NCBI GenBank assembly: GCA_963758495.1
Contig: CAVWVI010000001.1
Location: 288,001-352,000 of the forward strand
Source of the DNA: Oligoflexia bacterium
GTDB lineage: Bacteria; Bdellovibrionota; UBA1018
Direction of reading: 5' to 3'
DNA length: 64,000 nucleotides
The notes under the pieces were generated by a model. That model searched no databases. It worked only from the letters and a program-made list of their open reading frames with translations, and was not told where the DNA came from. Positions 27,952 through 46,387 of this stretch are shown piece by piece (within the stretch, counting starts at the first letter, position 1; each line of letters starts with the position of its first letter). The position numbers were made by a program, and so were the translations under genes.

Positions 27952-28140
27952 GTACGACCTCAATTTCGGAAGCGATCATACTGGCTTCCTCTGCAGTAGA
28001 CTTTTCGAAATAGTGAGGAACGGATCCACGTAACGTAACAATCCCATCTTTCGCAGCAACACTGAATTGAGTAGCGGTCACACTTGGATCCCACTTCAGT
28101 TCACTCATAACATCCTCGACAATCTTCGAGTCTTTCTTTT
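27952..28140 (-). pseudogene. BON-domain protein fragment truncated at the inverted-repeat element
   Basis: ELKWDPSV...VAAKDGIVTLRGSVPHYFEK; the frame runs on into the repeat. Confidence 0.7.
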
Positions 28141-29080: not shown

Positions 29081-30352
29081 TCAAACGTAGTTACCTACTT
29101 TGATCTCTTTTTTTACATTTATACATGTTTCTCGTTTCAAACCAGACAACTTACGACTTGCAAATCTCTTGCGAGATGCACAAGGCATAGAGGCTCTCTG
29201 TCCACGAGCGTGATTTCCCCGTCGGCCACGGGTACAGTGAATCAGAATATTTCGAGAAGCATGAACATCTCTGTCCTCACGATGAGCACACTCTGAATTC
29301 ACACAGGAAAAAATCCGATCTTTTAAACTCAGGTTTTCATTTTTAGTTCGGCATTTACGACATTCTTTCGAAGAAGGGAAAAATCGCTCTGCATAAAGGA
29401 CTTTCCCGCCTCTTTGGGCTGTCTTATATTTAATTTGTCTTTTGAACTCATGAAAGGAGATATCTGACAAAGAACGAGCAAGCTTGTGGTTTTTAAGCAT
29501 GCCAGCGGTGTTCAGATCTTCAAGACAAACGATTCCGAATTGATTGGCAACTTGGGTCGTTGTTTTATGGATAAAATCCAGACGAACATTGACTATTTTC
29601 TGATGAACTTTTGCTACTTTTTTTGCTGCTTTCTTCCTCCTCTTACTCCCCAATGTTTTGCGATGCAAAGAACGATTCTCTCTTGCTAATTTCTTGAGAT
29701 GTTTTCTAAGTGACTTCGGACCCCGAAACTTCCTCCCAGTTGATAAAGTCAAATCTGTCTCAAGACCTAAATCGCCTGCAACTGACTGAAGAGGGTTTTT
29801 ACATTTACGGTGAGGAAGTGGGGTTTCAACTTGAATGGAAATAAACCAACGATCCGCATTCCTTCCAATGGTTGCTCCTAAGACCTTCCCAGAGAATCGT
29901 AATGACTCCACTAAAGAAACTTTTCCAATGTGAGGAAGGTCTACAAATTGATCCTGAACCGAAAACTGATCATTGGAAATATAGAAGGAATCCCTAGATT
30001 TCCCCTTCTTTTTAAATCGGGGTTGCTTCGTTTTACGAGATGTCTTCTTGTTCAAATCACGAAAGTAATTTGCCCAAGCTGCCCCTAAATCGGCTAAAGC
30101 CCCTTCAGGAGCGCATTTAGTGACCTCATACATCCATGGAAATTGCACTTCCTTGAGTGAGTTGAGCTTTTTCTTTAATGCCATCCAATTCGGCCGCTCT
30201 CCCTCTTGATACTGCTTCTTCCATTCTGCCAATCCCCAGTTATAAGAAAACCGCGCTACTCCGCATGCCTTTTGAAAATACAAGACCTGCTCCTCCGCAG
30301 GGAGCATCTCAATCTTATGTGCGATCTTATAGAGTAGGGTTTGTTCGGTCAT
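29081..30352 (-). CDS. tnpB: IS607-associated TnpB RNA-guided nuclease
   Basis: RFSYNW, GDLG, LEDL, zinc finger and DRDVHA; ATGA overlap with tnpA. Confidence 0.9.
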   Translation of the reverse strand: MTEQTLLYKIAHKIEMLPAEEQVLYFQKACGVARFSYNWGLAEWKKQYQEGERPNWMALKKKLNSLKEVQFPWMYEVTKCAPEGALADLGAAWANYFRDLNKKTSRKTKQPRFKKKGKSRDSFYISNDQFSVQDQFVDLPHIGKVSLVESLRFSGKVLGATIGRNADRWFISIQVETPLPHRKCKNPLQSVAGDLGLETDLTLSTGRKFRGPKSLRKHLKKLARENRSLHRKTLGSKRRKKAAKKVAKVHQKIVNVRLDFIHKTTTQVANQFGIVCLEDLNTAGMLKNHKLARSLSDISFHEFKRQIKYKTAQRGGKVLYAERFFPSSKECRKCRTKNENLSLKDRIFSCVNSECAHREDRDVHASRNILIHCTRGRRGNHARGQRASMPCASRKRFASRKLSGLKRETCINVKKEIKVGNYV

Positions 30353-30963
30353 TCCTTTTGTACAGCCATTTCTAAAATAGTCTTCTTGTATTTTCGAAGT
30401 CCATAAAGCCGCGATGAAAAGCAATGAATGATGGACATCAAATCTTTCGTCATCTCTTGTTCTGGAGAAAGGGATTCTTGATTCATGACTGCAATCTGAG
30501 TGCCATGAAGTTTGCAAAAATGCTCAAACCATTCAAACCCAAATCGAACTAACCTATCTTTATGAGCCACAATGATCTCTGCGATCTCGCCCCGCTCAAC
30601 ACGATTCATGAGCTCAATAAAATTCTTGCGCTTGTAGTTTAAGCCTGAACCTATGTCTTCATATTTTTCATGGATGATTCTGCCCGAAGCAACACAAAAC
30701 TGCTCAACAGCTTTTTTTTGAGACATGAGGTCCGGTTTTTGGGCACTTCCCGAAACGCGCACATAACTTACGTTTATCCTTTGTTTGTCTTTCTGTCCCA
30801 CTACTTGAATATAATCTTCATGGGTATAGTATCGTCTATTCGTGGGTGTTCGCTTTGCTTGAAGAATCTTTTCACGATCCCATCGTTGGAGAGTGCCGGT
30901 CGAACGACCTATGAGTAAACCAAATTGTTTTGGGCTGTATATTTTTGTATTCAAAGCAGGCAT
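30349..30963 (-). CDS. tnpA: IS607 serine recombinase transposase
   Basis: N-terminal MerR-like HTH (TLQRWD...RRYY), YVRVS catalytic Ser, DIGSG, DRLVRFG. Confidence 0.9.
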   Translation of the reverse strand: MPALNTKIYSPKQFGLLIGRSTGTLQRWDREKILQAKRTPTNRRYYTHEDYIQVVGQKDKQRINVSYVRVSGSAQKPDLMSQKKAVEQFCVASGRIIHEKYEDIGSGLNYKRKNFIELMNRVERGEIAEIIVAHKDRLVRFGFEWFEHFCKLHGTQIAVMNQESLSPEQEMTKDLMSIIHCFSSRLYGLRKYKKTILEMAVQKE

Positions 30964-31186
30964 ATATTAATATATTTATATATACTTTTTAAGTACTATT
31001 CACAACTCTCACATTTTCTCCCACAAACCAGCAACCATTACGAAAAAGCCATCTCGGAATCCATGAAATTACGGACAAAGCAAGGAGTGCGCCGTATAAC
31101 AGTTCATTGAAGATCTGAATCTGAAACCCCTCCCTGATCCCCCTTGCCATCCTGCTTTTTGCATACGACTCCCGCGGGGGTGAATC

Positions 31187-32761
31187 ATGCCTAAATATAT
31201 TCGGAGCATCGTTATTTTATGGGGATTAGTGAGGGTTCTTTCCACATCAAGTTACGCATCACCCAGCTTGAAAGAGAAGCTCGAGACGGCATGGAGTCGG
31301 TATGCATTCGCAAGGGAATCTCTCCTGAATATCTTGAAAGATCCTCATATCCCACCTGATCAGAAAAAAGTCTCAAGAGAGGTATGGGAAGGGTGGCTTG
31401 AAGTTCCTCCTGCCTATGTGCTCACCTCGGAAGACTTCGACGAACTCAATAGGGATCAGAAGAACCGAATCGATAAAGCAAGACATGAGGACGAAAGAAC
31501 ATCAAAAATCGATCTTCAGGCCTTGCGAGAGCTGACACCCTCTCGATCCAAGGAAGCCATCTCTCACTTTTGCTCAAAGTTTCCCAAAGGAGCACTGCTC
31601 CATATTCACCCCGGAGCAACCGTTCAACGAAACACAGCTAAAGCGATCTTAAATCATTACAATCCGAATCTTCCCTTCAGCTCGATTCTGAGAACTATCA
31701 ACACTCCAGACTCGGGGGACTATCTCTATCCAGATGAAATCAGCGTTGTGGAATCTATGGGAGCAGATCAACCCTTTCTCAATTTAGCGCATCAAAATCA
31801 GGAAAATTTCATTAACTTGATGTTCTTGCCTCCAGGAGTTCAGCCCTTCGAGAGATTTGACGCCACCTTTCTTTTCATTCGTCCTGCTCTGTTTGACTGG
31901 CCGGAAACCGAGTCGGCCTATCTTGAATTTGCGAAAAGAGCGGCAGCTGAAAGAGTTTCTTATGTTGAATTTACCACCGGAATCACGTCATCCTCCGTTA
32001 AAACCCTGACAGATATTGTGGACCGTATCGAAAAGCAGACCGGAGTGACCATTCGTCTCAATCGTGCATTTGTTCGAACTTCTCCCGATGCCGACCTGAG
32101 GTCCCAGCTTGCAGATCTTTTAACCTTTCAAAACGATCCTCATATTACGGGAATAGACCTAATCGGGAATGAAAACAGAAGATCGGCACTAGACGCTGGC
32201 CAGTATGTCTACGGGACGGTTCTCGCCGATGTTGAAGCAGGTCTCAGCAATCTCCACCGCACTATGCATGCCGGTGAACTAGGAGAACCGAGAGACCCTC
32301 GAGATGGCATCATTCTAGGCTCAGAACGCTTAGGACACGGAGTGAAACTCGCATATGACTCGGTCGCGCTAGAATATGCATCTCTTCACCACCTTCCGAT
32401 AGAAATCAACCTCTCAAGCAACCTCCGGTTGGGAGTTGTAGAAAGTCTAAAAACCCATCCCTTTCTGAAAGAACTTCGCTTAGGTCTTCCTGTCAGTTTG
32501 AGCACTGATGATGAGGGCATTTTTGAGATTGATATCAATCATGAATGTGAAGTCGCGATTGCAAAGACTGATGTCAATTATACCGAAATGAAACAAATGG
32601 CCTTGAATTCGATTCGGACTTCTTTTTTACCTGCAACAGAAAAGGAGCACTTACTGAAAAAACTAGAGGACGATCTCATTCGATTTGAGGATGAGGAAGG
32701 CTGTGGCGAGAATCACTCTGTGGCTCCGCGAATTTCTAGTCAAGCCGGCGCTAGAATGTGA
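31187..32761 (+). CDS. Secreted adenosine deaminase-like protein (ADA2/ADGF-like architecture)
   Basis: Signal peptide; PKGALLHIH, HAGE, RLGHG, SN and STDD motifs. Confidence 0.8.
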   Translation: MPKYIRSIVILWGLVRVLSTSSYASPSLKEKLETAWSRYAFARESLLNILKDPHIPPDQKKVSREVWEGWLEVPPAYVLTSEDFDELNRDQKNRIDKARHEDERTSKIDLQALRELTPSRSKEAISHFCSKFPKGALLHIHPGATVQRNTAKAILNHYNPNLPFSSILRTINTPDSGDYLYPDEISVVESMGADQPFLNLAHQNQENFINLMFLPPGVQPFERFDATFLFIRPALFDWPETESAYLEFAKRAAAERVSYVEFTTGITSSSVKTLTDIVDRIEKQTGVTIRLNRAFVRTSPDADLRSQLADLLTFQNDPHITGIDLIGNENRRSALDAGQYVYGTVLADVEAGLSNLHRTMHAGELGEPRDPRDGIILGSERLGHGVKLAYDSVALEYASLHHLPIEINLSSNLRLGVVESLKTHPFLKELRLGLPVSLSTDDEGIFEIDINHECEVAIAKTDVNYTEMKQMALNSIRTSFLPATEKEHLLKKLEDDLIRFEDEEGCGENHSVAPRISSQAGARM

Positions 32762-32796
32762 AAAAGTCCGTTACAGTAAGATTGCCAATTGAGGAT

Positions 32797-33018
32797 TCAT
32801 CCTGTTTTTTGCTGGGGATTTTCCTCGCTACCTTCACACTCGTCTACATGATTACCGTGGATACGATGAAAATGTCCGTCGTGAACATAGTCAACATGAT
32901 CCCCATGCTGAACGGCCTTGCAGCCGCAACTCTCTCCATGCTGGTGGTCGTGATGTTCGTGAATGTTGCAAGAGTCACTTACTGAATTTTCTCTTTCTGA
33001 GCTTGTTTTTGCCATCAT
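32797..33018 (-). CDS. Small His/Cys-rich putative metal-binding protein
   Basis: HEHHDHQHGESCGCKAVQHGDHVDYVHDGHFH; GAGGAG RBS. Confidence 0.75.
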   Translation of the reverse strand: MMAKTSSERENSVSDSCNIHEHHDHQHGESCGCKAVQHGDHVDYVHDGHFHRIHGNHVDECEGSEENPQQKTG

Positions 33019-33065
33019 TTACTCCTCTTTTGTTGTTCAAAGTAATCGGCTTTCATGGTCCTATT

Positions 33066-33434
33066 TCATTTCCTGTTTTCCTGAGGGTCTATTAAATTTT
33101 CTTCACCCATGTTTGGATCGTCTTCTCTATCCTCAATCTTGAGATCACTTTTGGAATCCTCTTTTCTCTCGACATCACCGCTATAAACATCATTGTCGTA
33201 TTCCTCGATAGAGCGGTAACCATCGTAGCTAAGCTCACTTTTAAAGTTGGGATCGTTCGTGTCAAGACTGTCTCCAAAATTGGCCATTTCCTCTTTGTCT
33301 ACTTCCTCGAGTTTTTCCTCGGCCACATTCTTTTTGACTAGCTTTAGCGCGGCCCCCGAAGCTTTCTTAGCTGAAACTTCTTTTGGTTTTACTTCGCTTT
33401 TTCGACGCTTAGGTTGATTCATAATTATGTCCAC
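33066..33434 (-). CDS. Hypothetical protein with basic N-terminus and acidic C-terminus
   Basis: Charged low-complexity ORF downstream of a sigma54-like site. Confidence 0.6.
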   Translation of the reverse strand: MDIIMNQPKRRKSEVKPKEVSAKKASGAALKLVKKNVAEEKLEEVDKEEMANFGDSLDTNDPNFKSELSYDGYRSIEEYDNDVYSGDVERKEDSKSDLKIEDREDDPNMGEENLIDPQENRK

Positions 33435-33503
33435 CGGCTGAACCTCGCCAAGCTGCGATCTTCAGCTCATTTATGAATTGCAGTTTCCAACAATTAAATA
33501 AAA

Positions 33504-33520
33504 TGCATCGAATATGCCCA
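33504..33520 (-). promoter_or_regulatory. Putative sigma54 promoter
   Basis: TGGGCATATTCGATGCA, identical to 28255-28271. Confidence 0.55.
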
Positions 33521-33641
33521 CTTCGACGGCAGACGGTTTAACTTGTAATCGGCACAATGCAAGCAATAGCTTCTTTCACAATAAACCAGCAGGCAGTTTT
33601 ACCCTCCAATTAGGATTAAATATTTATGGAGTATTAAAGTA

Positions 33642-33890
33642 ATGAAAATCGCCACTGCAGCCCAAATGAGGGAGATGGACCGTCAGAGTATTGAAAGATT
33701 TCACGTCCCGGGTCTGATCCTCATGGAAAATGCAGCTCTTCGGGTCGTGGAGATCTTGACAGAACGTTTCGGGTCTCTAAAGAATAAATGCATCGCAGTT
33801 GTCTGTGGCAATGGTAATAATGGCGGCGACGGCCTAGAAATCGCCCGTTGCCAAAAAGAGGATCAGGAGGATCATAATGAGTCCTGCTAA
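33642..33890 (+). pseudogene. NAD(P)H-hydrate epimerase (YjeF-N/NnrE) N-terminal fragment
   Basis: MREMD...LMENAA...CGNGNNGGDG, then an abrupt end. Confidence 0.8.
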
Positions 33891-33911
33891 AATCAAGAAG
33901 GGACTACTCTG

Positions 33912-34715
33912 ATGTGGCACTGGCTTCGCGACCTCCGGCACAGAAAAATTCTTCAAACCCCATTTCCTCCCTACTGGGAAACGATTCTCGAAAATAATGT
34001 CACTCACTATCGCCGATTGTATCCGGAAGGGTGCCATCAGTTACAGCACCTAGTTCAGGTTTTCGTCGCCGAAAAGCATTGGGAGGGATGCGGAGGGCTG
34101 GTATTAACCGATGAAATACGAGTTACAATCGCGGCGCAAGCCTGCCTGATGATTCTTGCCTTGCCTCACGATCTTTACCGCGATGTGGAATCGATTTTCG
34201 TTTACCCATCGACGGTCATGACTCCTGAGCGAAGACCGGGAGTATTCGAAATCTCTATGAGCCCAACCCCGACATCTATACCGATCCTAGGACAAGCTCA
34301 ATACAAAGGGCCAGTGATTCTGGCTTGGGATTCAGTCAAACGAACGGCGCGGCATCCGGAAAGCGGCCATAACGTCGTTTATCATGAGTTTGCACACAAG
34401 CTTGACCTACTCAATGGAGAAGCGAACGGGACACCGCCACTTTCTAGCCCTGAGGAGTACAGACGATGGAAAGAAGTCTGTGAGAGGGAGTTCCTGCGTC
34501 TCCGCGCAGAATCAAAAAACGGCAGACATACTTTTCTAGATTCCTATGGTGCTACCCATGAATCGGAATTTTTCGCCGTCGTAACCGAAAAGTTCTTCGA
34601 TCAGCCTTTGGATCTCCTGAAGCACGGCCCGGAATTGTATGGAGTATTGAAGGATTTTTATCGGCAAGATCCAGCAATCCTAGTGATGCCGATCCCAAAT
34701 CAGAAAAGAAATTAA
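33912..34715 (+). CDS. Zinc-dependent peptidase, M90/MtfA family
   Basis: IAAQAC, NVVYHEFAHKLD, EFFAVVTE. Confidence 0.9.
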   Translation: MWHWLRDLRHRKILQTPFPPYWETILENNVTHYRRLYPEGCHQLQHLVQVFVAEKHWEGCGGLVLTDEIRVTIAAQACLMILALPHDLYRDVESIFVYPSTVMTPERRPGVFEISMSPTPTSIPILGQAQYKGPVILAWDSVKRTARHPESGHNVVYHEFAHKLDLLNGEANGTPPLSSPEEYRRWKEVCEREFLRLRAESKNGRHTFLDSYGATHESEFFAVVTEKFFDQPLDLLKHGPELYGVLKDFYRQDPAILVMPIPNQKRN

Positions 34716-34754
34716 GAGCAGGTACTCTTTTTGCTTCTTTCAAAAGGAAGATAA

Positions 34755-35138
34755 GTGAAGGAGATGTTTATAAGCATCACATTAGATCACACTATTGTGC
34801 CAGCACATAACAAGGAGGCGTCAGCAAGGTTTTTCGCAAACCTCTTTGGGCTCAGTTACGATGGTTTGATGGGCCCATTTGCGCCTGTTCGAATAAATGA
34901 AACACTTACACTTGATTTCGACGATCGCCGGGAGAATTTCGAATGGCACCATTATGCTTTTCATGTGAGCGACAAAGAATTTGACACCATTCTGAACCGT
35001 ATCAAAGCCGCAGGCATCAGCTACGGAAGTGCGCCTTGGTCTTTGGAAGATAAAAAAATCAACGACAAGCGAGGCGGCCGCGGCGTCTATTTCTGCGAAT
35101 TGAACGGCCACATATTGGAACTTCTCACTCATGCTTGA
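34755..35138 (+). CDS. VOC/glyoxalase family protein
   Basis: LDHTIV, HYAFHV, GGRGVYF...LELLT. Confidence 0.9.
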   Translation: MKEMFISITLDHTIVPAHNKEASARFFANLFGLSYDGLMGPFAPVRINETLTLDFDDRRENFEWHHYAFHVSDKEFDTILNRIKAAGISYGSAPWSLEDKKINDKRGGRGVYFCELNGHILELLTHA

Positions 35139-35246
35139 ACGGGGGGAGTCATTGTAATTTAATCAGGTGCTCTATAGATGAAACAAGTGGGTACTATCAG
35201 CGTCATTTTGATAGAACTTTTGCGGAAAAATTAAAAAGGTTTCAAG

Positions 35247-35397
35247 TTGTATTTCATGCTCCAGTTCCTCCATCGAACTACCGCGCTTCCGGCTTGCTGC
35301 TTGTTCACTCGCTCGCATCCCGCTCGCGCCCGGCTACGCCGGTACCGTGAACAAGACCTTAGAGAGGAAAGCATTGAAAGATAGTTATGTTTTTTTT
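35247..35397 (+). repeat. Left copy of the ~150-bp structured inverted repeat flanking the HNH gene
   Basis: 35247-35355 matches the reverse complement of 40880-40988 at 105/109. The next 42 nt align ungapped with about 10 mismatches. Confidence 0.9.
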
Positions 35398-35614
35398 AAA
35401 ATAAAAATGAATCAATCAAAGCTGAGGTAGGCCGCCATTTTTTTTGCCCCGTAAGTCTCGATTGCTCTCATTCTATTATGCATTGAACACTTTAATTCAA
35501 GATTCTCCACAGTGTTCGGTCCGCCGAAACCAAATGGAATGATGTGGTCTTGACGTCCTCCCCTGCCTAAAGGCTGGCCTTGCGGCCACCTGCCCAACGC
35601 AGGAGGGGATTCCC

Positions 35615-38600
35615 TTAAGCGACTTTCGTCGCTCTTAGCGATTCACGCCCGAATCGGAGAATATTTCTAGCTGCATTAACGTCACGATCGTGATGAGCAT
35701 GACATTCGCTGCAAGTCCACTCTCTTACCCCAAGACCACTTAGTCCGCTCGGACCTGTTTTTGTATGACAGTTCGAGCAAGTGACCGTGGAGGAACTTTC
35801 ATTCACTTCGTAGTAGTTTCCTGAATGCCTAATGGCTTTATACTTCAAGAGATTTCGGATGATTCCGAACGAAGCGTCTGCTGAACTTTTTCCACTTCCT
35901 GCTTGTGTGAACTTTCCGCTCACATTACCAACATACAAAGTGTTGGCTTTTCTTACTGCTTTTGTAGTCTCCTTATGTACATAGTCTTTCCGTTTGTTTT
36001 TAATCTTCGCGTGAATCTTCTTAACTCGTTTCTTTTTATTGGCTCGCTGCGCTGTAGCAAGCTCATCTTCGAGTTTTCTAAATTCACTGTTATTTTTTAT
36101 GAAACTTCCATCACTGAATGTCATTGAAGTCTTTAGGCCGGGATCTCCACCTAATTCTTCTATAGGGTGCTTGTGATCTATTTTTGAGACTTCACAAGCA
36201 AGATTCACGTACCAACGACCCTGAGCGTCTTGAGAAAATGAACCAGACAAGATTCGACCTTCAATCGGACGAGAGAGCCATATCTTGTAGCTATGCCCAA
36301 GGTAACAAACCCTGTGACCGTCCACTTGAATTGAATTCGCCTTGAATGGAATCCAGCCCAATGAACGCCTTGAGCCCCTAGATGTGCGCCAACGGAGCTT
36401 CCTTTTTTTGAACTGGATTCTCCGAATTACGTATTCTTCACAGATTGCCTGCACAGTTACACTATTAAGTCCAAGCTCTTGAGAGGAGCCCGAAGTCAGA
36501 TTTTTTAGGTCTATGGCTGAAAGAAATTCTCCATGATTTCGAATGGCATTGAAAGAAGTATCGTTGTCGAGTAAGGGGTAAACCTTACGGTTTACCCCTC
36601 CTCTAAGAACGCATCGTGCGAGTTTCCCCGCAATACGCTCAAGCCTCTCTGATACCCTTTGCAGGATACGGTTCACGTTGATGGAGTATTTCGTGACAGA
36701 TGGAATGAACTAATTCAAGATTGCTCATTTTATTACTGCCACCTAAACTCTTTTTGACCTTGTGGTGGACTGCCCACCCGGATTTAAAGAAAATAGGCTT
36801 TTTGCAATAAGAACAAGCTTTTTCTTGTAAGCTGTAGAGGTACATGCGGGACTTGATCGCTTGAGAACCGAGAGACATTTTTTGCTTCTGTCGATCCTCA
36901 AAGTATCGATCCCAGTCCGGATCATATGGGTTGGCTGCTGCTCTGACCTTGATATGACGGCTAATCTTAGTAGCCGCCATGTTATTTAGTTCAACGTATT
37001 CCCAGGTCCCATCCTCTGCTTTTTTCTTCCCGAAGAAAACCCAGTTCCGATCTCCATTAGTTCGGAAGTACTTTTGTTTAATCCATTTCCTGGATTTAAA
37101 GGGATGCCTTCGGTTCGACCATTTCCACAGAGCATGATAAATACTCATCGCCATGCGCTGGAAAGTTTTTGCACTACATACGTGACGATAATAATTGGCC
37201 CAACCCCTAATAAGTGGGTTGAGAAGATCAATTACAAGCGTCGGTTTTGCCTGCTTATTCTTTCGGATTATTTCCCGTATTTTATCTGACACCCTCTTCA
37301 CATTTGCTTTAGCTGGCTTTGTGATGAGTGTGCCTTTATACTTACGGAAATTAAAACCTAGGAAATCAAATCCATCCTCTATATGTGTGATCTTAGTTTT
37401 CTCTTTCGATAGCTCGAGACCACGTTCCTTCAGGAAATCTACGATCATTGGTTTGACCGATTGTTCGAGAATTTCCTTCGAGGCGCCAGTGACAATAAAG
37501 TCATCCGCATATTTGACGATGTTCACCTTGTATTTCATTATGATTCTTGGATTTGCTCTGAAGGTCGCATATAAACGACGCTCTAGGCCATCTAAGGTCA
37601 TATTTGCTATTACAGGGGATGCGATTCCCCCCTGAGGGGTCCCTTCGTTCGTTGGGTTCAGGATTTGATTTTCTATATATCCGGCTTTCAACCATCCTTT
37701 TAGAATCTTCTTTTCCATTGGAATATTATTTTCCAACCAGGTGTGATTAATTTTATCAAAGCAGGATTTAATATCTCCTTCTAAGATCCAACGTGCACTT
37801 CCCGGTTTCCCTAATGCCAGAAAACACTGTTCCATCGCGTCCTGAGTAGAACGCTCTTTCCTGAATCCGTATGAATTAGGATCAGCAGTGCTTTCTGCGA
37901 CAGGGTCCAGTCCCATGAGATAGAGAGCTTGCATCGCCCTGCATTTCATAGTTGGAATCGAAATAGGCCTTTGTCGGCCATCTTTCTTTGGAATATAGAT
38001 TCTTCGGAGTGGCTGAGGTCGATATCCACGCTGTCGAAGCGAGTATACTGCTCGCATCTTTTCCTCGGGTGTTTTCCATATTTTCTGGTCAACACCTGGG
38101 GTATTTCTTCCATCATTTTCGGTCACTCTGCGCACTGCCAAAAGCTTTGCGTTTTGTGATCGAGTTAGTAGGTATTGGAGCGATTTAACTCGTCCCCACC
38201 TACCTTCTTTCGTTGCCTTTACGATACGTGCCTGAAGACGACTCACTTCTTGGATTGCCGAATCCCAGCTAGTGGATTCCCATTCTTTGATAAAGTGAGA
38301 GGCCGCACCAGTAGATAGTGTTTTTGAATTGCCATTTACCGTCATCTGCTTTGCCTCCTTTATCGCTTTGTCAGGTTATTTCGTAATGAGAGACCCGGTA
38401 GAAGTCAGCTCGCTTTCACGCCGGTAATTAAACCGTATTCGATTCGTTATAAATCGACTTTCGCTTTCTCTACCATCCTTTACCTACATGCCTATGGGCT
38501 CGTCTTGCGACTCACTTTCCGTTTAAGGAGGCATGTAGGCTTACCGAGTTTCGTTGTTAAAACATCAATCGATTTAGGCTCGCCCTATTCACCGACAGCA

Positions 38601-39069
38601 TTGGTCCATGATGAGAGATACAGCACAGCTCTCATTCCCAGCTGCTTGCCTTTTGGCTCAAGTCTATCAGCACCTTTGACTTGTTATGGATTACGGCGTT
38701 TATCAGGCATTCACTTATGTTAGCCCTGTCGACTATCCTAGCCCTGATCCGCTTTAGTGCTAGCAGAATTGATCTGGACTCACGTCCAAATCTAGGTAAT
38801 TGACCCAGGATACATTGTCAGAGTGCTTCATACGGATTGTTACCTCTCCGCATTTACTCCTAGGATACTTGCTATGGAAGGCAAGGTTACATCGCCTCGC
38901 AGGCTTATAACAATTTTAGCAACGACTTTCCTCGTCGCACGCAGTAATTCCACACAAAATTAACAGCACGAGCAAGCTGGTCGAGTCTGTTTAATTCTGA
39001 GGCGTCCTTGATCCTATAGCGTAAGGTTGTTGTCACCTTGTTAGGATCTTTTTCCTTTCTCTTAGCCAT
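35615..39069 (-). CDS. tnpB: TnpB split by a group II intron (exon 1 39069-38941, exon 2 36565-35615; ~359 aa spliced)
   Basis: Phase-0 join ...NFVWNYC|NDTSFNAI...; GGDPGLK, zinc finger CSNC/CSEC, HDRDVNAARN. Confidence 0.9.
36566..38940 (-). mobile_element. Group II intron (2375 nt, IIB/chloroplast-like class)
   Basis: 5' end GTGCG at 38940. Domain V GAGCGTATTGCGGGGAAACTCGCACGATGCGTTC at 36640-36607. Domain VI hairpin GGGGTAAACC..GGTTTACCCC with bulged A. 3' end AC at 36566. Confidence 0.93.
36639..38345 (-). CDS. ltrA: Group II intron reverse transcriptase/maturase with C-terminal HNH endonuclease
   Basis: TPGVD, SYGFR, GDIKSCFD, GTPQGG, YADD, GWANYY, CxxC...HH...N...H; GGAGG RBS. Confidence 0.95.
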   Translation of the reverse strand: MTVNGNSKTLSTGAASHFIKEWESTSWDSAIQEVSRLQARIVKATKEGRWGRVKSLQYLLTRSQNAKLLAVRRVTENDGRNTPGVDQKIWKTPEEKMRAVYSLRQRGYRPQPLRRIYIPKKDGRQRPISIPTMKCRAMQALYLMGLDPVAESTADPNSYGFRKERSTQDAMEQCFLALGKPGSARWILEGDIKSCFDKINHTWLENNIPMEKKILKGWLKAGYIENQILNPTNEGTPQGGIASPVIANMTLDGLERRLYATFRANPRIIMKYKVNIVKYADDFIVTGASKEILEQSVKPMIVDFLKERGLELSKEKTKITHIEDGFDFLGFNFRKYKGTLITKPAKANVKRVSDKIREIIRKNKQAKPTLVIDLLNPLIRGWANYYRHVCSAKTFQRMAMSIYHALWKWSNRRHPFKSRKWIKQKYFRTNGDRNWVFFGKKKAEDGTWEYVELNNMAATKISRHIKVRAAANPYDPDWDRYFEDRQKQKMSLGSQAIKSRMYLYSLQEKACSYCKKPIFFKSGWAVHHKVKKSLGGSNKMSNLELVHSICHEILHQREPYPAKGIREA

Positions 39070-39120
39070 TTTTCGCTTGGGCTTTATCATCAACATTTGC
39101 ACTTACGATTACATTGGTCT

Positions 39121-39594
39121 ATGACAGTGTCAATGAGAAATATTAAAAGCCCAAAGAATAGTCCTGAGGCTATAGCTAAGCGAAAAACACCAGGAATTAG
39201 GCATGGACGCCATTGCGTATTTCTGATGCATGTGCATTTAGTATTTGTAGCCAAATATCGCAAAAAATTATTTACGAAAGAAATTTTAAATTTCATGGAA
39301 GAGATATTTAGAGACGTTTGCAAGGACTTCGATGCTGAGCTAAAAGAATTCAATGGTGAAAGTGACCACGTTCATCTCTTAATTAACTACCCATCCAAGA
39401 TTGCAGTCTCAAACTTAGTTAATAGCCTGAAAGGGGTTTCATCTCGACATGTACGGAAAAAGCAATTTCCTTCACTCCACAAATATATTTGGATGGATGC
39501 TCTTTGGACCCCAAGCTATTTTGCTGGATCATGTGGCGGTGCTCCTCTGGAAGTCATCAAACAATACATTGAACAACAGAAACCACCACACTAA
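39121..39594 (+). CDS. tnpA: IS200/IS605 Y1 HUH transposase
   Basis: HLVFVAKYR, ESDHVHLL (HUH), LKGVSS, KQYIEQQ. Start codon uncertain. Confidence 0.92.
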   Translation: MTVSMRNIKSPKNSPEAIAKRKTPGIRHGRHCVFLMHVHLVFVAKYRKKLFTKEILNFMEEIFRDVCKDFDAELKEFNGESDHVHLLINYPSKIAVSNLVNSLKGVSSRHVRKKQFPSLHKYIWMDALWTPSYFAGSCGGAPLEVIKQYIEQQKPPH

Positions 39595-40837
39595 AGTGCG
39601 GACGCCTTATATCCCCGGGATGAACCCCGGGGTTTTACGGCGCGTGTGATAATGAATTGCATGCGAAGATCCGCATTTTCGACCACTCGTGGGATCGACA
39701 TACTGACATTTTCCTTCATCACGATAATAAACAGTACGTTTCACTTCGGCTGGAATATATCGCGTCGGTGCTTGAGTTGGAGCTTCATCAGCCGTAGCTA
39801 TAGGCTCTCCCACGACTACCGTAGCACTTTGATTCGTCTTCACTTTTTCTCCGACGCCGGAGCGGACCTCACTTAGTTTGTGCGTAGACTTAGGCTCCGA
39901 CTTTTGAGGGAGTTTAGGCTTGAGTTTCTCCAGGCTTAACTTTGCCATTTCAGTGAACAATTCACTCAGCGTGAGATGAGGGTATTTGTTTGCGAGGAGG
40001 CCCCTCACTTCTTCCAATTGATCCAGCAGCGTCTGATCCGCCACAAAACGAACTTCAGAATGGGTCGGAGTCACAGACTTGATCTGGTCAGGCTTTTGAA
40101 TCGCAAGCGGCTGTGAAGAGTGTTGTATCAGTTCCCTTTCCGCTTCCCGACTGGATTTATTCATTAAATTTTCGAGAATCTCTTTTTTCTTCTCCAAATC
40201 AATTGGCTTTTTCAACTCCGCTTCCGTTTGAAATAGTCTTTGTGCCATCGCCGCGTTTGAAAGAGTGATTGTTCCTTTTTCAATTTCGTTTTCGACTTCT
40301 GGCATTTCAGTCAATAATATCATCGCACTTATTCTTCTCTGAGCCGCCCCGTCTGAAAACCCCAATTCCCGAGTGACATATTTAAAAAGCGACCGATAAC
40401 CCAGCGTCGCAAAAAGACGCCTCCGATAGACTTCCTGAAGATGATGCAGAACTTCTAAAGTAATTTTTCTCTCCTCTTCTGCGAGAGATTTTATTTTCCG
40501 TAAGAGTTCTTCATTATTGAGTTTGCGAATTGAATATGTCATCGATATACTTTCTGTGTAAATTTTCTTTCAATCACCCTAACACAGGTTTTAAAACTCA
40601 AAAATTACGCACGAGGATTGGGTATTGCTGATTTTTTAATATTCTTTATAGCCCTGCGCCAAACTCCGCCAGGAAAGGCTCCTGAAGTCATAAGAAAGGC
40701 TAAAAAAAGCATTTTAGAAAGGTTTGGCTATTGTCTAAATTGCATTTGAGATTTTGTTCAAAACAGTGTCAAGCCCGAAATCGAATCTTGGTAACTAAAG
40801 TAGCTTTTTTCTCCGACGCCGGAGTTTGCCTTTAGCA

Positions 40838-40988
40838 AAAATAAACAAAACCATCCTTCAATACCTTCCTCTTCATGGCCTTGTTCACGGTACCGGCGTA
40901 GCCGGGCGCGAGCGGGATGCGAGCGAGTGAACAAGGAGCAAGCCGGAGGCGCGGTAGTTCGATGGGGGAACTGGAGCATGAGATACAA
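40838..40988 (-). repeat. Right copy of the ~150-bp inverted repeat
   Basis: Reverse complement of 35247-35397. Confidence 0.9.
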
Positions 40989-41020
40989 GTAAGTAGTTCC
41001 TTTAGGGCTGTTGACAAGCA

Positions 41021-41399
41021 CTACATTTTTCCCTTGGAACGTAACAGATCAGCTGGAGTTTCACCGTCATCATCTTTTGCGTTCAATGATTCAGGATATT
41101 TCTTCGCTAGAAATTCAATAATATCTAGCTTTCCTTCCCGTGCAGCTAAATGAGCTCAATCATATATGTAGCTGCAAACCCGTAGCAGGTGCCAAAATCC
41201 AACTGATTGAAATCTTGAGTAGGTTTATATCAATCTTCTATATACTCGCTTCGTCTTTAATTCGCTTTTCTTGTCCTTGAGGACACCCAGCAGACTGTGC
41301 AAAAGCCTGCAAAGGAGGCATTAAAGGCGAAGCTAAAGCAAGGAGACCTAACAAGGGGGAGCAGAAGGGCGGCGGCGTGAGGGGTCTAAGCTTGGGCAT
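41021..41399 (-). pseudogene. Secreted ankyrin-repeat protein remnant
   Basis: Signal-like start MPKLRPL...LLGLLALASP and C-terminal AHLAAREGKLDIIEFLAKKYPESLNAKDDDGETPAD; the middle is disrupted. Confidence 0.6.
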
Positions 41400-41486
41400 G
41401 ATCTTATGATTCTAGTGGAATGAAACTAAATCATCAACTGGACAGGAATTCTCTATAAACTTGCGTGATTTTCTTAAAAATGCAAA

Positions 41487-42506
41487 CTACAACGGCCACC
41501 TTTTTTGAATGGCTGCTCCAAATATACGACTCAAACTTACATTTTTGACAGGTCCAACCAGTGTCTGATCCGTATAGACTGCGCTTACTGCCCAATCTCC
41601 CTCCAACACATAACTGAATTGAAGAGAGGCGTTCCAAACAAGTTGAGACTCTGAGACTGAGGTGATTTCACCCTGCGAGCGAATGGCATCTTCATAGATT
41701 GGAGAAAGACTGAGTCCCATCCGAAATGCACCGCCCCCAGGGCTGAGTCCGATTCCTACGATTGTGCTTCCACCCCATCCTGGTGACAGAGTAAGAGTGG
41801 AGCCATCCGCATTCTGAAATGTTCGAGAAAGGGCTCGATGGAGTTCGGCTGATAATAGAAAATCCCAATTTCCTAGAGTTTTTAACAGGGCGGCACCCAG
41901 AGAGATGGACAGGAACCCACGACTTCTCGCATCCAGCAGGTAAGGCTCGTTGGCATCATAGATTGAAGGACTCGTTGGAAGGGTAGATTGTACGAATAAA
42001 AACCCTTTAGGCTTCCAGGGGGAATAACTGAATTCAGGAAGAAACTCATAAGCTATGTCTAAAGCGAGATCTCCGATGCCTTGTGCTGCAGCTAAGTCTG
42101 TACCCACTTCACGACTTCTTCGAATTAAAGGAACCACTGTCCCAATTTGTAGACCTTCTGTCAAAAGATACGCTCCACTCAAATTGATCGTATCGATTTC
42201 TTCTGCGTCTTCCGAACTGCGAAAAATAGGAATCCCCTGCGGCGGAGCATCTCCTATAATAGCGCCTCTCGAAACCAGAACTGACATTTGTGAACGGTCG
42301 TCACCTGTAATCAGTGAGGGTAAACTTGATCCTCCTCCGCAACAGGGCGCCGCCCAAACAGGAATGATTTGTAGAGCAACGCCCAACGCTATGCTCGCAA
42401 AAGCTCCCCCCAGTTTGGGGGGCCATTTAGATATTAACGTTTGCAATGGATTCTTCCTGTACTTTTGACCCGCTTCTGAGTTGAACATGGACTTCCCAGG
42501 CTCCAC
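41487..42506 (-). CDS. Putative outer-membrane beta-barrel protein with N-terminal CCGG motif
   Basis: Signal peptide, AAPCCGGG, GIGDLAL, alternating beta-strand pattern. True start is probably downstream. Confidence 0.6.
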   Translation of the reverse strand: MEPGKSMFNSEAGQKYRKNPLQTLISKWPPKLGGAFASIALGVALQIIPVWAAPCCGGGSSLPSLITGDDRSQMSVLVSRGAIIGDAPPQGIPIFRSSEDAEEIDTINLSGAYLLTEGLQIGTVVPLIRRSREVGTDLAAAQGIGDLALDIAYEFLPEFSYSPWKPKGFLFVQSTLPTSPSIYDANEPYLLDARSRGFLSISLGAALLKTLGNWDFLLSAELHRALSRTFQNADGSTLTLSPGWGGSTIVGIGLSPGGGAFRMGLSLSPIYEDAIRSQGEITSVSESQLVWNASLQFSYVLEGDWAVSAVYTDQTLVGPVKNVSLSRIFGAAIQKRWPL

Positions 42507-42960
42507 TCATAATGAAGTAGACATTGCTTCCTTCATAAACTCCAGGGATGCTCTGATGACCAGAATCATGTGATTGAACCGTAGTAATCGGAGAGGAACC
42601 ATGACCCATTGAGGGCATCCATAACTTCACGAATACTTCGTTGGGTGGATTTGAATAGGGACCATGGTGAGTCGCTGCACCACTCTTCCAAAACCTCAAA
42701 GTAAAGGAGGAAGGATCTTGGGAGTTTGGGATCCCGTTCCATGATAATTCCGCGCACATCCTCTGCCGAGGAAACGACAGTGGACACTCGAACGCATCCT
42801 CAGTCCGAATAGGTGAATTTCCCGGGGCTGCTGAGGGAGCTCCAGCCGGAGTTTGGGCAGTCGCGTGTTCCATAATGGGCGAATCACACCCCATAAATAC
42901 AGTAGCCAAGAGAGTCACAACAACAAGACCCATCCATCCAAAAGTTGTTCTAATACACAT
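42427..42960 (-). CDS. YtkA/FixH-like lipoprotein
   Basis: Lipobox-like FMGC, LWMPSMGHGS, YFIMSGAWEV. Confidence 0.7.
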   Translation of the reverse strand: MCIRTTFGWMGLVVVTLLATVFMGCDSPIMEHATAQTPAGAPSAAPGNSPIRTEDAFECPLSFPRQRMCAELSWNGIPNSQDPSSFTLRFWKSGAATHHGPYSNPPNEVFVKLWMPSMGHGSSPITTVQSHDSGHQSIPGVYEGSNVYFIMSGAWEVHVQLRSGSKVQEESIANVNI

Positions 42961-43015
42961 GAAAAATTCCCCCTTTTAAATTTCTATTGAATCTGATTTC
43001 TTGAAATTAATTATA

Positions 43016-43663
43016 CTAAGAACGTTTGATAATACAGCCTAAAGTACGTACTTCTTGCTTTGATGGAGCCTTACCCTGAAAGATCGCCGACAGCGCCTCT
43101 TTGAGGTATTGTTTCTGGGCAGATTGAGCTATATGACTGTCGTCCACACCTCCTTGAAATAGGACTTTCCCATCAGGATTTACTACGAAGACATGAGGTG
43201 TCTTAAGCGCTCCGAGACTGTTCGCAATGTGAGACCTTTCGTCTTCAATTACTGGAAAAGGTAAGTGCGCTTCCGCAAAATGACGAGAAGAGAGATCGAA
43301 GGACTCGTCTGAGTTTGAATGAATACCGATAAACTGAAATCCCTTGGATGAGAATTGAGTAAAAAGTTCAGCCAATTTGAGTTCGTGACTCGCTGAACAA
43401 GGACATTTTGCAGATAAAAAAACAATCACTGTTCCTCGGGCAGAATCTCGAACGGTTACGGAAACTTCTCTTTTATTAACAAGATCTTTTCCAATGATTC
43501 TGCTTGGTGTTGTATTGGCGTGCGTTATTTCAAATCCTGATGAAACAAAAAATAGAAGAATTAAGTTTAGACTAAAATAGAGATAAAGAATTTTTATCAT
43601 TACAATCTTACTCCTACATGGAGATAAAGAATGAGTATTAACTGCTCTAAAGTAGGAATTCAA
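43016..43663 (-). CDS. Exported redoxin (AhpC/TSA thioredoxin-like)
   Basis: FLSAKCPCS, GALKTPHVF, GCIIKR. Start probably at MIKIL. Confidence 0.8.
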   Translation of the reverse strand: MNSYFRAVNTHSLSPCRSKIVMIKILYLYFSLNLILLFFVSSGFEITHANTTPSRIIGKDLVNKREVSVTVRDSARGTVIVFLSAKCPCSASHELKLAELFTQFSSKGFQFIGIHSNSDESFDLSSRHFAEAHLPFPVIEDERSHIANSLGALKTPHVFVVNPDGKVLFQGGVDDSHIAQSAQKQYLKEALSAIFQGKAPSKQEVRTLGCIIKRS

Positions 43664-43719
43664 TCAAAGAAATATTGTCCTTGAAAATCAGGAAAGCATT
43701 ATGCCAACATGAATTCTAA

Positions 43720-44112
43720 ATGAGGACTCTTCGCCAAATTCATCTTTATTTCGGATGTATTTTTGCTCCCTTGATTATCTATTTTTCCCTTTCTGGAGCT
43801 TGGCAGGTATTTCGCTTGAATGACATTCCTAAAAATGATCCGCTATCACCGCCGTCGCGCACTTCAATGATGCACTCTATTTTTCATGAACTCTCGAAGC
43901 CTCATACAAGTTCAACGCTACCGGGATCGAATCCAAAAACAGAACACTCAGTGGCATTCACGTGGCTTGCGCTCTTACTAGCATTGGGAATGACCTTAAC
44001 CACTTCCATTGGAATCGTCCTAGCTCTGACGTATGGCCGATCACCTCGAATAGTGGCGCTCTGCATGGGTATGGGTGTTGCACTTCCAGTCTGCCTCTTG
44101 ATTTTACGATAG
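43720..44112 (+). CDS. PepSY-associated TM helix-like membrane protein
   Basis: LRQIHLYFG...SG plus TM segments. Confidence 0.6.
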   Translation: MRTLRQIHLYFGCIFAPLIIYFSLSGAWQVFRLNDIPKNDPLSPPSRTSMMHSIFHELSKPHTSSTLPGSNPKTEHSVAFTWLALLLALGMTLTTSIGIVLALTYGRSPRIVALCMGMGVALPVCLLILR

Positions 44113-44165
44113 TTCTTATGTAATTTTTATGGGAACGTTACTGCTTCAAAGAGGGACTACTCAAT

Positions 44166-44603
44166 ATGAATCAGGGTCAGAAGTGTTCATACCGCTTGAG
44201 CCTAAAACGATTTTTAAGACGAGAGTTCCGGCCAAATTTAACAGAAAAATTTTTTACTTCCTCTGTGATCCTGCTCCTGCTCAACATGACCTCTTCCTGC
44301 GCCTTCTATAATGAAAAAAACCCTGGGGACCCAAGTACCATTACACCTCAAACGGTTTCCTGGCAGCGCGTTTCCACCGAATTTTTCCAGCCCCGATGCG
44401 CCATCTGCCACGGACAAGGAGGAGCGAATATCAACATCTCCGATTATAGCGCAGTACTTTCTGAAATGAGCCGTATTCAACAGCAAGTACTTATGAAGAA
44501 GAGTATGCCCCCAGACTCCCCGTTAACGCCTTACGAAGAAAAACTTTTATCCACTTGGATTGAAAACGGAACGCCTTACGGAGCGACAGGAGAAGGTCAA
44601 TGA
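44166..44603 (+). CDS. Monoheme cytochrome c lipoprotein
   Basis: CAICH heme motif, distal MPP, WIENG; lipobox-like TSSC. Confidence 0.8.
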   Translation: MNQGQKCSYRLSLKRFLRREFRPNLTEKFFTSSVILLLLNMTSSCAFYNEKNPGDPSTITPQTVSWQRVSTEFFQPRCAICHGQGGANINISDYSAVLSEMSRIQQQVLMKKSMPPDSPLTPYEEKLLSTWIENGTPYGATGEGQ

Positions 44604-45766
44604 AAAATAGTCTCGCCTTCCTGAGTCTGAGCTTAGCTCTATGGACAATAGGCTCTACGCCCGTATTTGCGTTTCCAGAAATGATTCGGCACAATTACGT
44701 TAACTGTACGTCTTGCCATGTGAGTCCAAACGGCGGAGGCGTGCTGAATCCCTACGGTCGCCAAAGTTCCGTTGCTGCTCTGAGCACGTGGGGAACTGAA
44801 AATGAAGCAAAGCCCCTTTACAACCTTTTCGCCCAACCGGATTGGATTGATACCGGGGCATTCATACGCGGAGTCCAAACCGCTCAGAATAACTCACAGG
44901 TCAGTAGCGGCTATTATTGGTGGATGCAGGGCCAGCTTGAAGCGGCGGCTCGATTTGGACCTGAAGGGAAATGGACGGCTGACCTTGCTTTAGGAGTGAG
45001 CCCCGATGTTCTCAACGGTCTGCTTCCTAATGGAGTTTCCCCTTTATCAAGCCCCAGGCAATATCTCATGTACCGACCGTCAGAAACCACTTCAATCCGT
45101 GCCGGTAAATTTCTCCTCGATTACGGCATCTATTTTCAGGATCATACGATAGCCACTCGGCAAGGAGTCGGCTTTGATGAGGGCAATGAAACCTACAACC
45201 TCGAATACAGCTACCAAGGAGAGGCGTGGTCAGGGTCGATTAGCGCTGATTTTGGTCGTCCCGATAACATAAGTCTGATGATGGAACGAGGAGCTGCTGC
45301 TACCGGAGGATATAACTTAAACGACCACGATAAGGTGGGCTGGAGCGCTTTCGTGGGAGCGCAAAATGGAAACAGCCGACAGTTGACAGGTCCTTATGTC
45401 CTTCTTGGATTTTCTCCTCACTTTTACTTTGTAGGTGAGATGGATCTTCAATTCTCTCAACCCACCCAAGGCAGTTCAACGCAAGGACTCTTTCAGTATG
45501 GAAAAGTAGGCTATGAACTCATACAGGGACTTCACTTCTATATTCTTGAGCAAGCGTTCGTTCACTCCTTTAATGGGACCTATCAGCCACTCCCTCAAGA
45601 TTTTAAATATGGTCCGCTCGCGAATCGTCTCTATGGAATTGGCCCAGGTATCTCTTGGTATCCACGCCCTCATTTTTACATTCAATTAGAGGTCCAACAG
45701 CAATTCAGTGCCGAACTCCCCTCATCGCAAACTTCTGGATTTTTGACAGGAAACATTTATCTATAG
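44600..45766 (+). CDS. Outer-membrane beta-barrel with N-terminal CxxCH heme motif
   Basis: Signal peptide, CTSCHVSPNGGGVLNPYGR, porin-like strands. Confidence 0.7.
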   Translation: MKNSLAFLSLSLALWTIGSTPVFAFPEMIRHNYVNCTSCHVSPNGGGVLNPYGRQSSVAALSTWGTENEAKPLYNLFAQPDWIDTGAFIRGVQTAQNNSQVSSGYYWWMQGQLEAAARFGPEGKWTADLALGVSPDVLNGLLPNGVSPLSSPRQYLMYRPSETTSIRAGKFLLDYGIYFQDHTIATRQGVGFDEGNETYNLEYSYQGEAWSGSISADFGRPDNISLMMERGAAATGGYNLNDHDKVGWSAFVGAQNGNSRQLTGPYVLLGFSPHFYFVGEMDLQFSQPTQGSSTQGLFQYGKVGYELIQGLHFYILEQAFVHSFNGTYQPLPQDFKYGPLANRLYGIGPGISWYPRPHFYIQLEVQQQFSAELPSSQTSGFLTGNIYL

Positions 45767-45775
45767 GGGTATTAG

Positions 45776-46387
45776 ATGAAATCTATCAAGCTCAGTCAAT
45801 TTTCTCCGTCGTTGCTCTTGATCACTACAATTTGCATAAGCCCTTGGGTCGCTTTTGCCGATTCAACCCAAGTCAACCTAGATCAAGGTTCGGGTGTAGT
45901 AGAGTTTCATGCAACAGGGCATCCAAGCGCACTCAAAATAGTTGGAAAAGGAACCTCTCCTAAAGGGATTTTCACCATAAACGGAAAGCTTGTCAGCGGC
46001 AGCGCCCATTTTCAGCTTGCTTTGTTAGATACTGGGATCGAAATGCGGGATCGCCATATGAAGGAAAAATATCTGGAAGTGCAAAAGTACCCTGAAGCCG
46101 CGCTCACTCTCACAAAACTAGAACTTCCCCAAGAGTTCACTCACGACGCCTCATTTAGCAAGGTCCCTTTTACAGGAACACTTTCTCTGCATGGTGTGCA
46201 ACACTCTGTAAGTGGCACAGTGGACGTTTCAAGGAAAGAAAACCAGGTGATGATCCACGCAAACTTCGGTCTTAAAATTGCGGACTACGCCATCGCTTTG
46301 CCGATCTTTGCAGGAATTACAATGGCCGACGATGTGCAAATCATGATTCAAAGTACAGCGCCCCTTGTAAAGAGAAATGTTGAATAA
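45776..46387 (+). CDS. YceI family protein
   Basis: LDTGIEMRDRHM, YP, GTLSLHGV. Confidence 0.85.
   Translation: MKSIKLSQFSPSLLLITTICISPWVAFADSTQVNLDQGSGVVEFHATGHPSALKIVGKGTSPKGIFTINGKLVSGSAHFQLALLDTGIEMRDRHMKEKYLEVQKYPEAALTLTKLELPQEFTHDASFSKVPFTGTLSLHGVQHSVSGTVDVSRKENQVMIHANFGLKIADYAIALPIFAGITMADDVQIMIQSTAPLVKRNVE

Follow-up and report, generated by a model that had tools for sequence, protein, structure and literature searches.

DUF222-HNH genes are widespread, occur in many copies and are unexplained. In mycobacteria they form the REP13E12 repeats (PF02720 plus PF01844). The available text of PMC10589994 names REP13E12/HNH/DUF222 as a class of repetitive element, and that of PMC3592412 describes DUF222 as an extra domain of HNH nucleases. 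No description of long inverted ends, gene-free doublets or paired palindromes of DUF222-HNH genes was found in the literature searched, which included few subscription papers and parts of others. Here we analyze a 64,000-nucleotide stretch (the window; positions 288,001 to 352,000 of contig CAVWVI010000001.1) from an Oligoflexia bacterium of the Bdellovibrionota. Positions 35247 to 40988 of the window hold an HNH-nuclease cassette of a multicopy kind, here broken and lying between two inverted repeats that we call repeat A. The family shares with REP13E12 a multicopy gene, a helical N-terminus and a C-terminal zinc HNH domain; it differs in its shorter N-terminal region with a predicted ribbon-helix-helix (RHH) part, and most of its members fall under the Pfam DUF222 cut-off. 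The reading we favour is that of a selfish HNH cassette akin to REP13E12, with inverted ends that are exchangeable and a putative mechanism set out below.

Other described systems share parts of this layout. Ssn (SsnA) GIY-YIG nucleases are, in the available part of PMC11893778, non-transposase nucleases flanked by their own hairpin repeats in an insertion sequence (IS)-like layout, with flanking on both sides in just part of the homologues (14-42%, compared with 11 of 137 here). The protein studied here is an HNH and not a single-domain GIY-YIG nuclease, and has several domains, including predicted double-stranded DNA-binding modules; its ends are 80-200 bp long and present in 8-39 copies, whereas the NTS/SRM repeats of Ssn measure 20-50 nt and reach hundreds of copies (same source). 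REPtrons (TnpA-REP/RAYT with REP, BIME and REPIN sequences) resemble the locus in their inverted doublets, lack of target duplication and one-strand hairpins with DNA-type loops, as far as the accessible parts of PMC6006769 and PMC8266576 go, and some copies of repeat A adjoin RAYT-like Y1 genes. The gene enclosed here, however, encodes an HNH and not an HUH-Y1 enzyme, the copy number is low, and repeat A forms a three-way junction of 110 nt whose stem foot lacks a 5' GT[AG]G guide. The account of the REP definition and Y1 classes mentions neither HNH nor Bdellovibrio in the portion available (PMC6006769), and our literature search found no paper that combines REPIN/RAYT systems with HNH. HEARO/IscB-omegaRNA also places an HNH domain near a structured non-coding element, and the HNH part of one homologue, P0013, weakly matches the IscB profile (E 2e-7, 30 bits against a cut-off of 175); here there is no RuvC and no Rfam HEARO match, the repeat stands on both sides, and its folded strand points away from the gene. 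Unlike classical DDE ISs and miniature inverted-repeat transposable elements (MITEs), the unit has no DDE transposase of its own.

The two arms of repeat A are 151-nt inverted repeats, alike at 105 of 109 positions in the outer core and at 32 of 42 in the inner stretch; they are the longest of 68 inverted pairs within 30000-46000, the runner-up being 30 nt at 70%. Removal of an IS605-type insertion leaves a 1643-bp unit with one open reading frame (ORF) of 343 aa, which runs from 40542 to 35412 on the minus strand. The insertion splits this HNH gene between codons 298 and 299, immediately before the Asp-His of the HNH site, and the site is intact in the read-through. No transposase belongs to the unit itself (a single ORF, none by Pfam and NCBIfam); the sole Y1 enzyme is that of the inserted IS. 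Repeats, unit and absence of a transposase had all been described in the initial annotation and were reproduced. The parts of the unit are as follows.

35247..35397, minus strand: left arm of repeat A, 15 bp past the stop codon; conserved fold on the outward-reading strand (minus).
35412..35549, minus strand: 3' part of the HNH gene, from codon 299 to codon 343 plus the stop codon; its first residues are the Asp-His of the HNH site; Pfam HNH matches it at E 0.002.
35550..39648, no strand assigned: IS605-type insertion, 4099 bp, with divergent tnpA and tnpB; preceded by TTAT target, right end TCAA.
39649..40542, minus strand: 5' piece of the HNH gene, codons 1-298; domains predicted from the model of homologue P0002.
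39844..39862, no strand assigned: palindromic site in the linker-coding region, codon 226; 19/19 identical to 40806-40824.
40806..40824, no strand assigned: upstream palindromic site, 282 bp upstream of the start codon and 14 bp inward from the right arm; a candidate for the site that the protein binds.
40838..40988, plus strand: right arm of repeat A, upstream of the HNH gene; conserved fold on the outward strand (plus).

A profile search of the source genome (G000, 3.66 Mb, with contigs C1, C3 and C4; other G numbers denote other genomes, and L numbers loci) found eight copies of repeat A, all of them no more than 392 bp from a family gene or remnant, and covariance models recovered the same eight. 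Six are seeds of the profile; both non-seed copies fall in family-gene windows that cover 0.73% of the genome, an outcome with a chance probability of 5e-5. The copies form two enclosing pairs (the window and C4:555.9-557.4k), a doublet that lies upstream of a gene at C3:178k, and two single copies, both at remnants. A second repeat family, B/C, bounds the family genes at C4:117k, C1:199k and C1:254k. The last two units are 99.3% identical over 1590 bp in unrelated flanks, a recent duplication of the whole unit; an 8-bp repeat occurs at one of the two C-type copies. Seven of the 20 matches of B/C in this genome lie by family genes, and the rest are gene-free doublets, singles or copies around other genes. 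One gene-free inverted B/C doublet, with arms of about 200 bp, stands in the window at 27379-27997, with similar ones at C1:352.7k and C3:1306k, and two same-direction copies surround a Fic-like gene (C3:1215.6-1217.6k). Two further arrangements of family sequences were observed: at C3:177.5-180.4k (L202), a family gene and its upstream doublet lie between direct repeats of neighbouring sequence (~360 bp, 88%), and C3:534.2-534.5k (L209) and L208 hold an internally deleted derivative that shares both flanks of the C4:347k family remnant and carries a 22-bp inverted repeat unrelated to repeat A.

Bounded units are clearest in a related genome, G035, which has an 80-bp repeat of its own with at least 39 matches (among the best 40 of 46 candidates, which were scored). 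Its family genes give 24 matches at 22 loci, 19 of which have the repeat. When paired manually, the repeats make up 11 gene-enclosing inverted pairs, 8 singles beside a gene, 2 gene-free pairs (626 and 665 bp) and 5 other arrangements. Thirteen units share one common outer boundary, the gene-bearing ones being 1163-1677 bp long, and 12 of the 13 have no target duplication. These units appear to form a family of elements that are bounded by repeats, have MITE-like derivatives and are sized like the window unit, and they give good support to a mobile unit. Of the earlier proposal, a selfish HNH element with structured ends, the selfish repeat-bounded unit stands, as judged from the eight copies of repeat A by family genes, the second enclosing pair, the 99.3% identical units and the 11 units of G035. 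Inverted pairs around HNH homologues, for which the initial annotation had proposed a test, occur twice in G000 with repeat A and 11 times in G035 with that genome's own repeat. The dedicated pairing of the protein with structured ends is not supported in that form, with 126 of 137 homologues lacking inverted flanks and just 8 of 35 repeat A copies outside G000 lying by family genes. Since at least three unrelated repeat families (A, B/C and the G035 repeat) serve as ends, and since repeat A also forms gene-free doublets and adjoins other mobile genes, the long ends look exchangeable.

To place the protein, its 297-aa N-terminal piece was compared with 2342 candidates of similar length, of which 65 were relatives, the best being 55-59% identical. 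Relatives with names are mostly Bdellovibrionota, with some Spirochaetia metagenome-assembled genomes, and the gene family is present in 27 of the 41 genomes searched (0 to 53 matches per genome). Among 46 aligned homologues, Pfam HNH (PF01844) matches 36 and DUF222 (PF02720) matches 5 at E<=0.01 (best E 1.3e-7), and the Asp-His is found in 32. The window protein scores 13.3 bits against DUF222 (gathering score 24.4; E 0.05), and the nearest Atlas clusters include a DUF222 cluster at 0.96. A structural model of homologue P0002 (pLDDT 85.8) consists of a helical domain, an RHH-like part, a disordered linker and an HNH domain. The helical domain aligns with the DNA-binding domains of ParB, KorB, Spo0J and VirB (five ParB-family chains, Z 4.9-6.9; KorB, Z 6.5, rmsd (root-mean-square deviation) 3.4, 99 aligned); the model also aligns with the NikR RHH (Z 5.0, rmsd 1.9, 45 aligned) and a phage HNH (Z 6.8). 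A Foldseek search of the PDB gave nothing at E<=0.001. By analogy with this model, the window protein is predicted to comprise a ParB/KorB-like helical domain (about 23-143), an RHH (about 160-210), a disordered linker and a zinc-HNH domain.

The palindrome found upstream of and inside the window gene has just these two copies in G000 at no more than one mismatch. A palindrome in the linker-coding region is present in 68 of 132 genes, and in 13 of the 68 it recurs within the gene's own upstream 600 bp at no more than one mismatch. None of 46 N-terminal palindromes recurs upstream, and 3 of 632 comparisons with other loci do; these controls replaced an earlier far-upstream control (9/137 at 15+ nt), which in several cases held further copies of the linker palindrome. 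Looser targeted looks add recurrences at C1:199k of G000, in G113 and in others. The palindrome (~16 bp) is kept, with a sequence particular to each subfamily, while the flanking sequences of different copies show no relation; in G001, the upstream region shared by some cassettes begins at it. Such a subfamily-specific site fits the predicted ParB-like DNA-binding domain, in that a dimer with ParB-like domains would bind a site of this type. The palindrome, which the initial annotation had not noted, is a better candidate than the structured ends for the protein's own site. In G001 (L326 and L329), a small unrelated element of ~150 bp with inverted ends and a 4-bp duplication sits in the palindrome centre, in two copies.

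We consider it somewhat more probable than an even chance that the cassette is selfish and moves by way of its palindromes. The HNH protein would bind the short palindrome of which its own gene has one copy upstream and one inside, and would nick DNA, starting copying that host recombination and repair would complete; the long inverted ends would be part of the moving unit where present, exchangeable, and often lost or never there. The element would likely spread with no known transposase of its own. In favour of movement, two Peredibacter strains with 10 and 13 HNH genes, putative members of the family, differ in the positions of these genes, with 6 at shared sites (PMC13147790). We hold more tentatively, and think it on the whole doubtful, that Bdellovibrionota contain a class of transposase-free elements in which a ParB-like/RHH/HNH protein cuts at a subfamily-specific palindrome and moves a unit with exchangeable inverted ends, leaving no duplication and giving rise to MITE-like derivatives, a scheme that would also explain the mycobacterial REP13E12/DUF222 repeats. 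If the HNH protein is the mover, this would be a new way of transposing; if it is not, repeat A would be an uncatalogued structured module common to HNH, Y1 and recombinase-like genes. The locus and its relatives offer three handles: in one genome, 11 units whose inverted ends are defined; a fold of the single-stranded DNA (ssDNA) type that covaries and is absent from Rfam; and a protein-specific palindrome that predicts a binding target.

A number of observations speak against a cassette that moves itself in this manner. We know of no strand-transfer chemistry for HNH domains, and every structural Z-score is below 8, the tool's own level for conclusive likeness. At one mismatch, 55 of the 68 linker palindromes have no upstream match and 64 of the 132 genes have no linker palindrome; the 13 upstream-matched genes include kin. 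A survey of 156 full genes, which are the best matches to the window protein and no random draw, left 137 with enough flank, and an inverted match was found in only 11 (5 in G000, 3 in G035), one of which is the palindrome only and one of which is at 69%. Proteins linked to repeat A occupy five places in the tree (FastTree, 161 rows, with Spirochaetia and frameshifted rows excluded and L261 entered twice; deep branches weak), with 22-36% identity between groups. Neither the G035 repeat nor B/C has a conserved fold, and the G035 consensus does not fold; structure is therefore no general need of the ends, and one fold shared by all end families was rejected. For repeat-bounded units no empty allele and no circle were observed; the empty-site alleles looked for at the window locus were not found in a comparison set without a congeneric genome. 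One family copy lies at the same site in three Bdellovibrio genomes (L122, L125 and L126, one orthologous insertion), which makes some copies old and fixed; for this one, too, an empty site was looked for and not found, genomes further off being too diverged to give junctions. Repeat A itself was found by covariance search in at least 9 of 126 other genomes of the class, with 1 weak match further out; the search scored the best 25-50 candidates per genome and may miss weak copies. Of its 35 copies outside G000, 8 lie by family genes (7 in G001, 1 in G113) and 27 have no family gene beside them: 6 adjoin Y1 genes of the RAYT-like kind, 3 flank a recombinase-like gene of 581 aa and 18 are by neither, although 16 of the 18 are within about 400 bp of a contig end, with one side unseen. 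Dispersal of the repeat independently of HNH genes, which the initial annotation had named as a point against its own proposal, is thus partly seen outside G000 (27/35) and not inside it (0/8).

The arrangement of repeat A also varies between genomes. In G113, which belongs to another family, the window order of gene, palindrome and outward repeat recurs; in G001 a doublet upstream of an HNH gene points towards the gene, opposite to the window order. A BLAST search with the window arm found one strong copy elsewhere, in G079, without an HNH gene, and plasmid, phage and viral-contig records gave no match to repeat A. We conclude that repeat A is private neither to the HNH gene nor to Y1.

The evidence for structure in repeat A rests on covariation, with the arms near chance when folded singly. 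The 9-bp stem, the GTA-triloop hairpin and the AGTTC/GAACT stem with a mismatch in its loop, reported earlier, are all present, but single-arm folding is barely beyond chance (DNA z -2.04, -2.57, -0.98 and -0.88; RNA z -0.31 to -1.35). Nine copies yielded a three-way junction in which 12 of 23 pairs are compensatory. Across 40 copies fitted to the model, in an alignment that leans to its own structure, helix P1 has 95.6% pairing and shows double changes in 9 of its 10 pairs; none of 500 shuffles scored as high, and slid controls gave 33-51%. The tail helix is weak (68% paired). On the outward strand, G.T exceeds A.C (15 vs 3) and G.A exceeds T.C (36 vs 3), and we therefore take the outward-reading strand to be the folded one. 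A C-GNA-G loop occurs in 22 of 32 P2 hairpins (the opposite-strand control gave 10 matches, with stem letters also counted), and C-NGGAN-G loops in 31 of 40 P3 and 17 of 40 tail hairpins. A GTAG, TTAG, TCAG or GCAG word follows the structure 3' on the folded strand; no GT[AG]G guide was seen 0-2 nt 5' of a 7-20 bp hairpin. A covariance model, as suggested earlier, was built, and the fold covaries; a comparison of the sequences with Rfam 15 gave no match, be it with the region (bar the intron), the arm alone or 11 related loci (best 13.9 bits against 31, E 1.6). Two candidate identities were rejected, an attC site, as inspection of the inner end showed no RYYYAAC, and a c4 antisense RNA, for want of an Rfam match.

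Instead of the HNH protein, the repeats could be the mobile agent, as doublets of the REPIN or MITE kind that a Y1 (HUH) or DDE transposase moves in trans, with the HNH gene as cargo or as a cassette that lands in or beside them; we regard this as unlikely, if quite conceivable. Back-to-back doublets of repeat A that enclose no gene, in G001 and at C3:178k, speak for it, and the GNA loops would suit recognition of ssDNA, GNA triloops and tandem G.A pairs being signatures of DNA hairpins and the triloops pointing to ssDNA. Repeat A stands upstream of 4 of 6 Y1 genes in G001 and of 1 of 14 in G003. The Y1 proteins near it match REP_Tyr_transpos under its cut-off (E 4e-8), and their family (L255, L256, L262 and L305 in G001, L265 in G003) is under both NCBIfam cut-offs and present in 37 of 74 other genomes of the bacterial family, with up to 19 matches each. 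This family, however, was not found in G000 or G084 with the one Y1 query used, repeat A has no 5' GTAG guide at the stem foot, and the Y1 family was rejected as an obligate partner, the repeat being present at just 1 of 30 Y1 loci sampled from 30 genomes. In G084 (L248:2477-5782, with a similar copy on L249), two copies of repeat A that are 96% alike and face outward surround a divergent pair of genes (323 and 581 aa), a further point for movement in trans; neither gene has a Pfam match and the larger has no NCBIfam match either, and we take its motifs to be tyrosine-recombinase-like. As to a DDE enzyme, one DDE element, flanked by an 8-bp duplication, has 230-bp ends to which B/C shows a weak match (E 3.5e-4 to 9e-3); the duplication-free G035 units speak against such an enzyme. 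Against any mover in trans, every copy of repeat A in G000 is near an HNH gene, and 30 of 39 G035 ends lie beside one. The DDE element itself (L314:1441-3781, C1:532940-535280) has terminal inverted repeats that are unusually long and 99% identical, and an 8-bp target duplication, and its transposase frame stops after residue 363.

The inverted pairs might also have arisen on the spot as a by-product: a DNA break close to the cassette, perhaps one that it made itself at the palindrome, would have copied the upstream repeat inverted to the other side, the unit as such being immobile. Likeness specific to pairs fits this account. The window arms are each other's closest relatives (0.92 over the model, at most 0.75 to any other copy compared), and those at C4:556k are 79% alike over 198 nt, including unstructured AT-rich flanks. 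In addition, the palindrome-to-palindrome region upstream of the gene in G001 is one long inverted repeat, and close paralogues without long ends have in common only a stretch that starts at about -110 to -330 and runs to the stop codon. We nevertheless judge it improbable: G035 has 11 enclosing pairs with one boundary, in which the two arms of a pair resemble each other no more than arms from different pairs do (0.718 vs 0.717), and the same arrangement arose with three repeat families. Slightly less credible still is that each arm encodes a small structured RNA read outward, such as a CsrA-binding RNA, carried along with mobile genes. The strong covariation with G.U-type pairs on one strand, the NGGAN loops, which resemble CsrA sites, and an AT-rich inner side that could hold promoters would agree with it; the DNA-hairpin signatures named above, the spacing of some doublets, which leave only about 50 bp between stems, the lack of an Rfam family and the strict positional tie to mobile genes would not. 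The selfish HNH cassette with exchangeable ends remains our preferred reading.

The insertions and neighbours of the window unit are listed below.

35195..35222, minus strand: 28-bp motif outside the left arm; second copy (2 mismatches) at C4:346215, 163 bp downstream of another family remnant, in the same orientation.
35615..39036, minus strand: tnpB, 348 aa without the intron; interrupted by a group II intron.
36566..38940, minus strand: group II intron (Rfam RF02012, RF00029), with a reverse transcriptase/maturase/HNH ORF at 36639-38345 (TIGR04416, 360 bits, cut-off 300).
39097..39594, plus strand: tnpA, Y1 transposase of the IS (PF01797 E 2e-42; NF033573 above cut-off).
40989..41021, plus strand: 5' third of an unrelated high-copy hairpin repeat; abuts the right arm, lies outside the unit and fixes its visible end.

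No target duplication beyond a 3-bp chance word was seen at the window unit, as reported earlier; the test is confounded at the right end, because the truncated copy of a different hairpin repeat starts exactly at 40989, and the true right end of the unit may be lost to it. On the left, the true end may be farther out, at the 28-bp motif, of which there are two copies and none besides with fewer than 7 mismatches. As the break precedes the catalytic His, the window copy of the cassette would be inactive unless the IS is excised and the intron does not stand in the way of excision.

The locus shows four levels of nesting, with a group II intron in tnpB, within the IS605-type IS, within the HNH gene, within the repeat A pair. 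Elsewhere in G000, this IS is represented by only a 92-bp right-end remnant at C3:1437.4k. The high-copy hairpin repeat of ~100 bp (134 BLAST matches, 32 of them full length; for example C4:1082745-1082845) has a fixed left end, a long near-perfect stem and many deleted forms. Beyond it, on the side where the initial annotation had placed an ankyrin remnant, a label that is likewise weak, 41021-41156 matches a multicopy stretch on C3. The gene beside the unit that had been labelled VOC matches Pfam Glyoxalase at E 0.008, under the cut-off, and the label is weakened to that extent. An IS607-type element, with a serine resolvase that has a MerR-like helix-turn-helix and with TnpB, lies at 29081-30963 of the window, 4 kb to the left of the unit.

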